A stretch of DNA of 64,000 nucleotides from Octopus vulgaris (lineage: Eukaryota). Shown here one piece after another: positions 39,817-49,148 of the stretch (positions are counted from its first letter, which is position 1; the number at the start of each line of letters is the position of its first letter). Position numbers and translations under genes: made by a program. The DNA is taken from NCBI GenBank assembly GCA_951406725.2, contig OX597825.1, positions 22,568,001 to 22,632,000 of the forward strand, read 5' to 3'. The notes beneath the pieces are model-generated. The model was given only the letters and a program-made list of their open reading frames with translations, had not been told where the DNA came from and did not search any database.

Positions 39817-40785
39817 GAGTGAGAGAGCAGGGCATGCCATCAAAGTGACACTGGCGTACAAATATACTAAGCCGAATATAGCTATCATGACTACTCGTCT
39901 GATAAGAGTACACCAGACCCATATATCACAACCAGGACTCCGACAATTATTGGTACTGCTACCACCTTTTTCATCGAGCACAACTGCTTAACCTCCCAAG
40001 CTAACCTGTAATATCTACCGAATTTTTTCTTCCTTATCGCATACCTTGTCAGCTGAGCATGCATAGTTTGCTTTCTTTTTCAATTAAGATTATGCCTGGC
40101 TTCCTATTCTCTATCTCATGGTTGCACTGACTCATAAAATCCCACAGAATCTTTGCATTATCATTTTCGATGATGCCTTCGGGTTTATGGTCGTACCAAT
40201 TTTTTGCTCTGTCAAGTCCATACTTGTTGCAAAGTGTCCAATGGACAACTCTTGCTAAATATTATTGGCGTCTCTTATATTCTTTCTGGGCCAGTGACGT
40301 ACATTCACTGGTAATGCGCCATACGGTTTCACCATTTTCTCCACAAATTCTGCACTTATCACTTTCTGATGTGTTGTCTATTCTGTATTTTATGTAATTT
40401 GTTCTTACTGCTTGTTCTTGAGTAGCAAAGATTAGAGTCTCTGCTTCTTGTTTTAAATCCCTTTTAGTGACCCACAGCCATGTCTGTCTTATCTTCAGTT
40501 CACTATGAAATTGTCCATGCATTCTTTTCTTTACCCACCTATTTTCAGTTTCATTCGTTTTCAATTTCTTCTATAGTGCTTTATCTTAGCAATCTTTCAT
40601 CCTACACAAGCCTGCCCTACTTACTCTTAATAATAGGGGATCTTTGGCATTTTTAGATACCATGCAATGTTGTTTTCTTCTGCTCTAATTCTGTGTTCGC
40701 ATCCAATAAGCCCTCTTCCCCCTCTTTTTCTTGGTACATACAGTCTGTCTGTGTCACTTTTTGTGTGGAACGTCCCATATCTAAT
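39817..40785 (-). mobile_element. 5'-truncated R4/Dong-type (restriction-like endonuclease) non-LTR retrotransposon
   Basis: Minus-strand translation: DRLYVPRKRGGRGLIG (post-RT), MHGQF, zinc knuckle CRICGENGETVWRITSECTSLAQKEYKRR, ILWDF, RKPGI (degenerate PD motif), VPIIVGVL. Bounded by (TAA)n. Confidence 0.85.
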
Positions 40786-40824
40786 TAGCGACTTCCTTTT
40801 ATTATTATTATTATTATTATTATT

Positions 40825-40940
<116 letters not shown>

Positions 40941-40969
40941 CATTATTATTATTATTATTATTATTATTC

Positions 40970-41518
<549 letters not shown>

Positions 41519-43367
41519 ATACAAACGTTCTCTATGTATATGATTTTATTCGTCCATTTCCTCCGATGGTTAGGCATAGAGCCAGCCATTACTCCCAATG
41601 GATTATGACTAGGTAAAATGTTCCTTGTTAACCTAGTCCCATTGCTAATAGTTTTAGGTGCTTGTGCAGTCTTAAGGAAACACACGTCCTCTTTAGTTCA
41701 CATCCTTGATTCAATAGAACGTCTAGGAAGAAGAGAGGAGTCTGCACCAGCATACGGCAGGTGCTCATAACATCGGAATTGACTGGGGCGAAGTGAAATA
41801 TCTCTCGCCTAAAGACACAACGTACTGTCGTATTCATAAATTGAAACCATGGTTTTATGTCCATCGATCGAATATCTACATGTACTAGGTCATGTGTATT
41901 TAATGGTTAAGTATCATGGAGAGAAACTATCGTCAATAAATATGTACGAGACCACACTTATCTCTGATTTGGTAGCCAATTGATGAAATCTCACCAGATG
42001 ATTGATATACATTTTATCGATCTGTGACAGACAAAGTACACGTTAAACTCTGGACGCGTAGCATCTTGGGGAAGGGTCAAAGTCCAATGCACTAAGTCTC
42101 TTCCAAATTCTTCAAACGCTCCGCTTCTTTTCCCAATAATTAAATATTTCCTATATTTTCAAGATATGCGCTAGAACGACTAAAATCCTCATCAATCATA
42201 GATTTACCATTCCTGCGCTATTCAATTTGCAAGTTATTGAAAATGATATAATTTCTAAGAAAGTTTCTGTTTGTATGTTATATTCTATATTAAAGTTTGA
42301 ATCACTTCGGTAACTGGAATGGTAACAATAGTCTTCAGCATAGAATATATTATTGGTCGTGTGTCATTGCTGTTAGATTATTAGATTACTAGTTTATGAC
42401 TTGAATCTCCATGCCAACGTATTTCGGGTTATATCCGAGGAACAATACGTTGTGAGCATATTTAGTTCAACTGGTTCACATCCACAGAAAGCAACATTGA
42501 TGGCAACGTCAAACGTATCAAATTTAATTTACATACATCTTGACATTTCATGCTCCCTCGCATAAAGCCGGTTGTTAAGTCAGGATAAGACAAAGTTTTT
42601 CAATTTTTTATTCATTCTTATCGTATCCTTCCTACACAAATAGAATTTCAAATACCTTTTCTGAAAAACTAAAATCAAGAACATTATCTACCAAGAAAAT
42701 ACTGCTGAGCAAAAAATACAGCGGTATGACAATAATTTATACTGAGATTATTTTCATAATACAAATTATTTGAAGGTTTTGCTGATACTGAATATTTATA
42801 AGATAATCGTATTTATGGATAGTTGCTCTGTCTTCAAATATTAATTGAATATAGATCGTTAGTGGCTGCCCGATTTGACAAGCTTTTCTAAAATATTCAA
42901 GAAATGTGGTAGTTCCTATTGTGTCACTGATTTCATGTGTTCAGTGAATTTAAAACACACAGAACATTTATGGAATAAAATGCGGAGTGATCCTCACAGC
43001 TTACAGCTTTATATAAACAATGCAAAACATTGATTTCCTTTTACATCAGAAAACAGAAAACTTTTACATAGAAATAACTTATTATGGTATTTGATTTCTG
43101 CATATTTATTCTGGTTTGTTCAAAATAAAAAGAGGGCAGGTAAGTTTGACTTTTGTGATAGGCGAAGGCAGAATCAAGGGCGAAATATATCAGTTACTAC
43201 AAGCAAAATATCTAATATTCTACAATTTTTGAAAGTCAATTGATGATGTTATCGTTCTCCATATCCTTAAAGTCAAATATTTCTACTGATATTGCCGTCA
43301 TCATTTCTAATTCATAGAAGTACCAGAACTATATTAGAAAAGATTTCTTCAAAGTAGCAGAACTAGT

Positions 43368-45599: not shown

Positions 45600-46384
45600 C
45601 CACACGTATGTACGTATATATTTGAATGTGTCTCTTTTACAATTATATGTGCGTTGGTGGTCTTGTTTTTCTTTGATCCATTCTTCTTAAACATTTTCCT
45701 TCACTGGAAGTAAACCAAATTAATAATAGGTGTGGAATTTGATGATAAGTAAAACGTGGCAAGATATTAATTGAATTGAGGATGTGTTGAATATTTTGCG
45801 AAGCTGAGAAAAAAGAATAATCAAAAGTAGCACGCTTTATTGATCTGCGTATATTTCATCTTCATATGTGGATTAGACGGAGTGATACCAGTTCGCTATG
45901 CCAAACCATAAATTCTTTTTACGTTACATATTGCGTCAAAAACGGAAACCAGATAATTTATAGCATATATACTTTATAACCTACATTTCCTTTATTCTTG
46001 ATAATGGGGACGAGACAACACAATTTATAGATCAAAGTCGATCATTTGTAGTATTTAGAGTGAATTAGTAAGAGGCAGGAAAAACGTTGGCATATTTATA
46101 TATGTTGTTCACAAGAGAATGTTGCGAGCGTAACAGTGGAAGACACAAACGAACCGATAGAGAAAGAAAGATATGTCACTCTATATCTAATGTAGAGCAA
46201 AAATAGATGATTGCGTTGGACTGAATGAAGTCGATTGAACTCGATATTCTGTTGTCCAAGATTGTGCTAACGTCGACTGAATAGGACAACCGCGTTGGAT
46301 ATATATATATATATATAATATATAATAGAAATATTAAAATTACTAAGTCTCTCTAAAAGAGAAGAACGGCAGCGTTCCCGGAAA

Positions 46385-46585
46385 ATAATAGTTATCGCCA
46401 TACTAATATGGCATTCTTATAAAAATAAGAATAAAGCTGTCCGCTTATTAGCTCCATGAGGCCATCGCCTTAAGTTAGCTATTTGAATATCAAATAGCTA
46501 ACTTAAGGCGATGGCCTCATGGAGCTAATAAGCGGACAGCTTTATTCTTATTTTTATAAGAATGCCATATTAGTATGGCGATAAC

Positions 46586-46591
<6 letters not shown>
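46385..46591. repeat. perfect inverted repeat (102-bp arms, 3-nt loop) next to (TA)n
   Basis: 46385-46486 is complementary to 46490-46591. Each arm contains nested hairpins GCCATA-ctaa-TATGGC and ATTCTTAT-aaaa-ATAAGAAT. Confidence 0.95.
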
Positions 46592-46638
<47 letters not shown>

Positions 46639-46714
46639 ACAGGTTTCTTCAAGTCATATATATATATATATAAATATATATGAATGAATGGAGTTGAACG
46701 ACGAATTAACAAAA

Positions 46715-46813
46715 TTCCTTTATTTTCGACATATGTTTCGAAGGCTGCATATCCCTAATTGCGAAGGAATAAGGAGTATATTATGCCGCTTTCTCATCAG
46801 GAAAATCAAGGAA
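46715..46813 (-). ncRNA. type I hammerhead ribozyme in a ~190-bp cassette between (TA)n runs
   Basis: Minus strand: stem I TTCCTTgATTTTC/GAAAATaAAGGAA; CTGATGA; stem II GAAAGCGGCATA/TATGCAGCCTTC; GAAAC-ATAT-GTC with palindromic ACATATGT. All core positions are canonical. Confidence 0.85.
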
Positions 46814-46868
46814 CTTATGTCAACATCAAGATGCACAAAACACTTTTAGATGACTGCTCATACGGAGC

Positions 46869-46907
<39 letters not shown>

Positions 46908-46909
<2 letters not shown>

Positions 46910-47070
46910 CGCAAGACTGGCTGTGTGCTAAGAAGCATGCTTAACAACCACATGGCTCTAGATTCAGACCCACTGCGTGGCACCTTGGGCAAGTGTGTTC
47001 TACTATAGCCTCGGGCCGACCAAAGCGTTATGAGTGGATTTTGTAGACGGGAACTGAAAGAAGCCCGACG
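46908..47070 (+). mobile_element. SINE family A head
   Basis: Matches the head of 51407-51568. Confidence 0.85.
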
Positions 47071-47128
<58 letters not shown>

Positions 47129-47180
47129 TACATATACATATACATACAAACATACATACATACATACATATATAATTACA

Positions 47181-47320
47181 CGACGGGTTCTTTCAGTTTC
47201 CATCTACCAAACCCATTCACAATGCTGCAATAGCAGAGACTCACTCTAGGTTCGACGCTGCGGAACTGAATCCTGAGCCATGCGGTTGAGATGCAAGCTT
47301 CTTACCACAGCCACACCTGC
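47181..47320 (-). mobile_element. SINE family A head (inverted relative to 46908-47070)
   Basis: CGACGGGTTCTTTCAGTTTCC...CTTACCACAGCCAC. Confidence 0.8.
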
Positions 47321-48235: not shown

Positions 48236-49148
48236 GTGTGGCTGTGTGGTGTGTTGTGGCTGTGTGGTGTGTTATGACGGTATAGTAAGAAGTTTGGTTC
48301 AAAACCAAATGACTCCAGATTCAGTCCTACTGTGACGCACCTTGAGTAGATCTCTTCTACAATAGCCTCGAGCTGACCAAAATCTCGGTAGTGGATTTGG
48401 AAGACAAAAACTGAAAGAAACCTCGCGTATGTGTGTGTGTGTACATATATGCATGTATGTATGTATGTATGTATGTATGTATGTATGTATGTATGTTTGA
48501 ATGTATGTATGTGTATGTATGTATGCATATATGCATGGTGAAGGCGCATGGCTCAGTGGTTAGCGCGTCAAGCTTGCGACCCTGAGGTTGTGAGTTCGAA
48601 TCCCGGACCGGGCTGCGTGTTGTGTTCTTGAGAGAGACACTTTATTCCACGTTGGTCCAGTTCACTGAGCTGTAGAAATGAGTTGCGACAATACTGGTGC
48701 CAAGCTGTATCGGCCTTCGCCTTTCCCTTAGATAACACTGGTGGCGTGGAGAGGGGAGGCTGGTATGCACGGGCGACTGCTGGTCTTCCATAAATAACCT
48801 TGCCCGGACATGCGCCTGGGAGGGTATCTTTCTAGGTGCAGTCCCATGGTCAGCCTTGAACGAAGGGGGCATCAGATTTCAGATGCATGTGTGTGTACAT
48901 ATATGTATGTATGTATGTATGTATGCATGAGTGTGTTTGTGTACGTGTCCCCTAACACCGCTTCACGACTAGTGCTCGTATGTTTACGTCTGCGTAAATT
49001 AGTGATTGTGCAAGAGTGACCGATAGACTACGTACAGGTCTTTAAAAAGAAATAGTACTGGGGTTGCTTTATTCGGATAAAATTCTTCAAAGCAGTGCCT
49101 CAGTATTGCCGCAGACTAATGACTGAAACAAGTAAAAGAATAAAAGAG
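48236..49148 (+). mobile_element. old SINE family A split by a family B insertion
   Basis: Head 48236-48427 and tail ~48930-49148, with SINE B between them. Confidence 0.75.
48540..48870 (+). mobile_element. SINE family B
   Basis: Matches 19148-19459. Confidence 0.9.

Follow-up and report, generated by a model that had tools for sequence, protein, structure and literature searches.

The locus raises the question of what a hammerhead is doing in a 190-bp island (46681–46870) inside a (TA)n tract of the Octopus vulgaris genome: is it a working ribozyme placed to cut a host transcript, or a part of something that moved there? The window analyzed is the whole 64,000-nucleotide stretch of contig OX597825.1 from 22,568,001 to 22,632,000 on the forward strand, and window coordinates are used unless a locus is named. 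A sequence-only reading of the window had described the motif as near-canonical, likened it to the hammerheads of Penelope-like elements (PLEs) and retrozymes, and suggested that it could cut pre-mRNA if the region were a minus-strand intron. A type I hammerhead is indeed present on the minus strand at 46813–46715, with a predicted cut after 46728, and all of the elements described could be located:

46801–46813, minus strand: stem I, 5' strand; 12 of 13 positions pair with the 3' strand, with one G·A
46794–46800, minus strand: core box CUGAUGA (C3–A9)
46782–46793, minus strand: stem II, 5' strand; 12 positions, 2 mismatches
46752–46781, minus strand: loop II, 30 nt, with a predicted inner hairpin
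46740–46751, minus strand: stem II, 3' strand
46728–46739, minus strand: GAAAC-AUAU-GUC, core box plus palindromic stem III (ACAUAUGU); predicted cut 3' of C17 at 46728
46715–46727, minus strand: stem I, 3' strand

Stem I stands as it was described, with 13 positions and one mismatch; stem II pairs at 10 of its 12 positions, and its two mismatches (A·C at position 4 and G·A at position 7) had gone unmentioned. The motif has the CUGANGA, GAAA, and NUH core around three helices with an open stem I that define a type I hammerhead. A hammerhead descriptor run on both strands matched the window only at 46813–46715 and matched none of 30 block shuffles; a stricter version, in which four stem II pairs had to be perfect, had no match in the window and missed this motif too. 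The Rfam search that had been proposed as a check also went against the motif, which the Rfam hammerhead models left unmatched both at gathering score and at E ≤ 10, probably owing to the long stem and loop II. A match to an Rfam covariance model is no defining biochemical feature of hammerheads.

The identity of the island emerges from its copies elsewhere in the 2.8-Gb, microsatellite-rich genome. The 190-nt island returned 1,463 first-look candidates, the best 40 of which were scored and show ~97% identity on many contigs. In 30 fetched loci, the homology often extends 5' of the island and stops 3' at (TA)n, with an inverted partial copy at the 5' end in many of them. Walking 5' of the island in the longer copies, at 87–96% identity, leads through a 3' UTR into a GIY-YIG nuclease (Pfam E 3–5e-4 in the flanks, below cut-off) and then into a reverse transcriptase (RT) that carries DKT, KDHK, YRDD, and FLDVTL; the two domains form a single ORF with the GIY-YIG at its C terminus. 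Pfam assigned no RT family to these PLE proteins, and they found no match in the PDB. What follows the hammerhead on its 3' side is the 5' UTR of the element itself, which in long copies leads up to the start codon, and the hammerhead therefore sits in a pseudo-LTR. The hammerhead occurs on both sides of the ORF, in arms that are tandem or inverted; the 3' end is repeated before the ORF in 21 of the 30 loci, a partially tandem organization, and tandem copies in L063, L105, and L106 have periods of 3–4 kb. An RT and GIY-YIG in one ORF, a partly tandem pseudo-LTR that bears a hammerhead, and 5' truncation with an inverted truncated copy at the 5' end are all traits of EN+ PLEs. The unit measures ~3.5 kb, with an ORF of ~895 aa in a sister subfamily. 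No intact full-length ORF of the window subfamily was found among 25 loci, and a family-derived model detected no second copy within the window.

We consider it highly probable that the 190-bp island represents a Hydra-like PLE reduced by 5' truncation to its 3' end, that its hammerhead comes from the terminal repeat and likely requires dimerization or the element's protein for cleavage, and that this solo copy is likely an inert passenger. The last point follows from its being the clipped tail of a PLE with many copies in TA repeats. The window hammerhead is thus an expected part of a PLE end and no host ribozyme; the likeness drawn at the outset to PLE and retrozyme hammerheads is borne out by its place in a PLE terminal repeat, but the island as a stand-alone unit is not, its copies continuing into the PLE ORF. 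With its surroundings, it reads as follows:

46670–46873, minus strand: very probably a pseudo-LTR piece from the 3' end of a Hydra-like Penelope-like retrotransposon, truncated at its 5' side; 97% identity to the best copies over 190 nt
46670–46682, minus strand: short fixed 3' terminus of the PLE family, AU-rich, merging into the TA target, ~+47 to +58 after the cut
46656–46669: (TA)n at the 3' junction
46871–46907: (TA)n at the 5' truncation point, with a 3-nt TAT microhomology to the element
46325–46591: two-armed, 5'-truncated fragment of a 363-bp non-coding retrozyme-like family in the same TA tract, with a 102-bp perfect palindrome

The 3' end of the window element lies 58 nt beyond the predicted cut, and another copy, L030, is truncated at the same 5' point. 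The pseudo-LTR hammerheads of minimal and variant type described for PLEs (PMC4209133) share with the window motif the type I topology, a long helix II, G10.1–C11.1, and a palindrome formed by 15.2–16.2 plus loop 3; they too are mostly solo copies from truncated PLEs with inverted pairs nearby. They differ in that the octopus motif has no unpaired base between A9 and G10.1, a long stem I (13 positions), and a 30-nt loop II.

The neighbor in the same TA tract invites a different assignment. Its fragment contains a perfect 102-bp palindrome at 46385–46591, and its own hammerhead does not lie within the fragment. The family is very young (627 candidates, 99% identity), and its full 363-bp units (L116, L117, and L119) carry a type I hammerhead of canonical geometry, in which stem I measures 6 bp, stem II measures 4 bp, and the core has U3–A8, a covariation that has been reported in hammerheads (PMC4209133). 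Judged by these sequence features, the family fits the non-LTR retrozymes (PMC7229834). The island resembles it in being short, non-coding, hammerhead-bearing, and inserted in (TA)n, and it shares with metazoan non-LTR retrozymes a type I hammerhead in a dispersed low-GC repeat (PMC7229834; bioRxiv 10.64898/2026.07.22.740005); moreover, retrozymes have been proposed, on phylogenetic grounds, to derive from PLE pLTRs (bioRxiv 10.64898/2026.07.22.740005). The island could then be the monomer of a non-autonomous non-LTR retrozyme instead of the tail of an autonomous PLE, a reading that is largely refuted by copies that run 5' into the RT-EN ORF at 87–96% identity. Whereas those retrozymes are non-coding tandem units of 150–450 bp, each with a hammerhead, the island is contiguous with a coding PLE, and the 30 loci contain no short tandem array of the island unit, the tandem periods being 3–4 kb. 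We therefore hold a retrozyme monomer to be extremely improbable and retain the assignment to a PLE end.

Within that assignment, the solo copy might still be an active, monomer-competent ribozyme that cuts host pre-mRNA or a minus-strand read-through transcript. Folding z-scores are modest, at −1.69 for 99 nt, −2.71 for 131 nt, and −0.70 for the full 190-nt island. In the window copy, the hammerhead fold is predicted to lie 2.3 kcal/mol above the minimum, with stem I paired at P 0.95 and stem II at P 0.93. Stem III in the monomer reaches a predicted P of only ~0.02, as against −7.0 kcal/mol for the self-duplex of ACAUAUGU, a perfect palindrome; together with the retention of this palindrome in most subfamily variants, these modeled values lend support to the earlier suggestion that stem III suits dimeric cleavage. 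A typical young copy, L005, is predicted to have its hammerhead fold 4.1 kcal/mol above the minimum with an ensemble P of 0.02, which speaks against the explanation that we prefer. The alleles of the window copy at 46806 and in loop II fold better than this typical copy (2.3 vs. 4.1 kcal/mol above the minimum), the core is complete, and invertebrate retrozyme hammerheads with a 2-bp stem III (tetraloop) cleave well as monomers (PMC7229834), all of which would suit an active cutter. However, position 46806, which is A in the window and C in most young copies, where it gives a 2×2 internal loop in stem I, is not private to the window, as A is shared with copies L006 and L064. The low pairing probability of stem III also counts against monomer cleavage, as does the 12-bp stem II closed by a 30-nt loop, which departs from the 6-bp/4-bp geometry of canonical loop–loop contacts (PMC4209133); a loop 1–loop 2 tertiary contact, if formed, would have to involve this 30-nt loop and an internal loop in stem I, 5 bp out. 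The copy is, furthermore, one among more than a thousand candidates. Of 181 screened window frames, the 150 that were scanned yielded no host gene at the Pfam cut-off, in itself a weak test, and no exon was found. Contigs of four sequencing runs that we guessed to be RNA contain pieces of the PLE family; the unique flank at 45620–46305 is uncovered in every run, the unlabeled large run included, and the runs are uninformative on the locus. Cutting of pre-mRNA by the window hammerhead is thus unsupported, and we regard an active host cutter as very unlikely.

Conservation of the motif was examined across the family. The core pattern, whose absence from homologous copies had been named as grounds for rejecting the ribozyme, is intact in 46 of 57 near-complete arms, a set biased toward window-like copies, and in 13 of 13 ends of the sister subfamily. 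We aligned 29 rows, comprising the window, one young copy, and 27 of 42 distinct arms; the rows were hand-chosen for divergence, and the 15 arms left out were near-duplicates or damaged, so the invariance of C3, U4, G5, G8, and A9 in 29 of 29 rows is flattered by the choice. Among these rows, position N7 varies between U and A, and H17 between C and A, all of which are permitted in hammerheads. In stem II, 5 of 11 pairs show double-sided changes, and 93% of cells are paired compared with 35–47% in slid controls, a score reached by 0 of 500 shuffles in a control that ignores relatedness. The stem III palindrome is kept as ACAUAUGU, ACAUGU, or ACACGUGU across subfamilies; AUAU, AU, and ACGU in loop III preserve it, and AUGU or AUGA in three rows makes it imperfect.

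These patterns bear on the possibility that the hammerhead of the window's young subfamily is a decayed relic, free of selection. The A·C at stem II position 4 is fixed in the young subfamily, the window included, whereas older subfamilies have G-C; the young subfamily has yielded no full-length intact ORF among the 25 loci; and a PLE has been found to insert in vitro without a working hammerhead (PMC11167929). The core and palindrome nevertheless persist across subfamilies that have reached saturation at synonymous sites (pS 0.78), and in all 13 3' ends of the intact-ORF sister subfamily. A relic is accordingly unlikely in our view, and a hammerhead carried as part of the PLE terminal repeat remains the preferred account.

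The protein places the element within a known kind of PLE. It contains QSDKTRN (DKT for DKG), IRWL (the RW motif, with L instead of K as third residue), KDHKPNF...RLICP, and YRDD, and it lacks CCHH; in the nuclease, CxxC and CxH flank the conserved E and N (CGVCNSE ... INT ... CMH), with a single Cys between GIY and YIG. These features match the description of the Hydra clade and, by eye, the alignment text of Craig et al. 2021 (PMC8557442); the clade, one of C-terminal EN+ PLEs, shares the single RT plus C-terminal GIY-YIG ORF, DKT, the RW motif, CxxC/CxH around E and N, the KDHK...RL[IL][NC]P region, (TA)n targets, and, close to the 3' end, a type I hammerhead whose short stem III is palindromic. 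In contrast to that clade, the octopus family has lost the CxCX5C linker, has an Asn-rich insert, and measures ~3.5 kb where Hydra elements are generally <3 kb; its 12-position stem II with a 30-nt loop is longer than in any Hydra row of the supplement table (PMC8557442). We file it as Hydra-like, and not as a full member of the clade, because the linker is missing. An identity with Naiad/Chlamys was rejected on the C-terminal position of the nuclease. Hydra-1_Obim, also from an octopus, has a hammerhead with CUGAAGAG, a 7-bp stem II, an 8-nt loop, and ACCA-A-UGGU (PMC8557442); its hammerhead and protein text differ from those found here, which makes the present elements another family and led us to reject that identity as well. 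Full-text searches found no literature on this PLE family, on a linker-less Hydra lineage, or on PLE–retrozyme chimeric insertions, although the family may already be catalogued in Repbase/Dfam. The main text of one study lists Penelope families in an octopus and contains no ribozymes (PMC13282606). The family is new but of an already known kind, and its hammerhead in itself is ordinary, as PLE ends carry them.

The missing linker sets this lineage apart. None of 21 distinct family loci has CxCX5C, nor does any of the 14 long sister-subfamily ORFs that gave a full-length frame (L132–L146 without the broken L141). A protein search returned 681 relatives at E ≤ 1e-3, the best of them with 43% identity. 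Among the matches listed, 83 of 120 include a nuclease domain, and 79 of these 83 have the linker. The sister subfamily L132–L146 (e.g., G000:C10:96298537-96301188) contains many intact, linker-less 895-aa ORFs with 71% protein identity, and its hammerhead reads CUGAAGA and ACACGUGU with a predicted GUA cut site; 13 of its copies have a median identity of 98.9%, and all 13 retain the hammerhead core and end in (TA)n. The sister subfamily has probably been active recently. Another Hydra-type family in the same genome (L129–L131; 836 aa, 38% identical) keeps CxCX5C; the hammerhead of that family likewise combines the ACAUAUGU palindrome with a long stem II region. Comparison of the two linker-less subfamilies gives a pN of 0.09 for the RT and 0.26 for the nuclease region versus a saturated pS of ~0.8, values indicative of a linker-less lineage that is under purifying selection. 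In a tree of 39 RT segments, whose outgroup is too distant and long-branched to root it, the three linker-less rows cluster as a single branch (100/100), nested within a group that also contains linker-bearing rows (100/99), and a single loss of the linker would be the simplest reading. The linker-less lineage may be trans-complemented by a linker-bearing family.

Mapping of the termini gives an indication of how such elements reach (TA)n. Outer ends fall at two places after the cut, ~+47 to +79 and ~+169 to +191 nt, both AU-rich, and 24 of 25 distinct two-armed loci have one end of each type, the exception being L011, in which both arms are long. The homologous two ends of the sister subfamily lie at +59 to +66 in 3 of 13 copies and at +212 to +220 in 10 of 13. 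Of 30 copies, 26 have (TA)4 no more than 35 nt from their 3' end, compared with 9.5% of random window positions, and L012, one of the four copies counted without it, ends in TA by end mapping. The upstream pseudo-LTR, present in 21 of 30 loci, starts upstream of the cut in 13 (−6 to −911) and downstream in 8 (+41 to +170), and never at +1. This scatter, with no start at the cut, gives no support to cleavage as the process that defines 5' ends; starts on both sides of the cut indicate instead that the template spans the cut site, uncleaved or re-ligated. A template of this kind agrees with the Poseidon PLE, whose hammerhead is assisted by protein and can be dispensed with for insertion in vitro (PMC11167929), and with minimal PLE hammerheads (min-HHRs), which show no activity as monomers and little as dimers (PMC4209133).

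A close parallel is Poseidon_Ac (PAc) of the green anole (Frangieh et al. 2024, PMC11167929), a PLE that starts reverse transcription at two internal sites and cuts and extends both strands. PAc shares with the octopus family genomic ends that are set by two internal start sites beyond the hammerhead on its downstream side, the use of both DNA strands, AT-rich targets, and inserted RNA that is read through the cut site. The PAc sites are 30–40 nt apart and lie in the ORF (PMC11167929), whereas the sites mapped here are ~130–160 nt apart, AU-rich, situated in the 5' UTR, and paired one per arm in genomic insertions. In the mechanism that we propose, the element's nuclease would nick both strands of a (TA)n tract, and each nick would prime reverse transcription inside a more-than-unit-length RNA, tandem or circular; priming would take place at one of the two AU-rich sites, 3' of a hammerhead that is either uncleaved or re-ligated. 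For the window copy, cDNA synthesis would have begun at the short site, ended after ~200 nt, and joined the target through the TAT microhomology. From the literature, we infer that the ribozyme would process multimeric element RNA and be dispensable for insertion.

One insertion suggests that the two strands need not be primed on the same RNA. At L111:6572-6696 (G000:C5, about 87,812,070-87,812,200), the inverted arm is 363-bp retrozyme-like sequence from the long end, and the other arm is a near-full-length PLE that ends at the short end; the two are joined without TA, with ~5 nt of microhomology. This single clean case points to a PLE enzyme copying retrozyme RNA. Pieces of the 363-bp family also lie directly beside PLE ends at L074:4458-4578 and L069:6175-6247; these were not counted as chimeras, as TA runs or orientation permit independent insertions. 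(TA)n targeting has been tied to the cysteine linker (Craig et al. 2021, PMC8557442). We tentatively propose, with slightly less than even confidence, that a long-lived Hydra-like lineage targets (TA)n without the linker, through its nuclease and the pairing of nicked TA strands with two fixed AU-rich RNA sites, one per strand, and that the strands may be primed on different RNAs, L111 then representing a PLE enzyme that mobilized a retrozyme. A lineage that lacks the linker yet resides in (TA)n bears on the tie drawn by Craig et al. 2021, and the young intact sister ORFs (13 copies, median 98.9% identical) make the need for the linker testable in vitro. The L111 chimera and the end maps likewise bear on the unsettled role of the PLE hammerhead and on the route by which retrozymes are mobilized.

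Several other features were noted along the way. An array at G000:C20:23,329,000-23,355,000 (L105 and L106) comprises at least seven diverged PLE copies at ~3.2–3.7-kb spacing, the hammerheads of which read CUGGUGA, a core change at A6. The Argonauta hians protein P0006, annotated as GATA zinc finger domain-containing protein 14-like, aligns as a Hydra-type PLE RT, and its name looks like a mis-annotation on the strength of that alignment. L123 holds, at about 1–840 on the + strand of the locus, what we take to be a Neptune-like PLE RT fragment near a copy of the 363-bp family. In the window, open frames at 40052–40968 and 41518–41906 (minus strand) encode a zinc-knuckle-like CRICG...ETV motif with no Pfam match and presumably represent a degraded non-LTR retrotransposon end. 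The island itself is flanked by copies of a very abundant SINE at 46908–47073 (plus strand), about 47178–47320 (minus strand), and 48275–48493, which we assume to be an octopus tRNA-derived SINE from its appearance.
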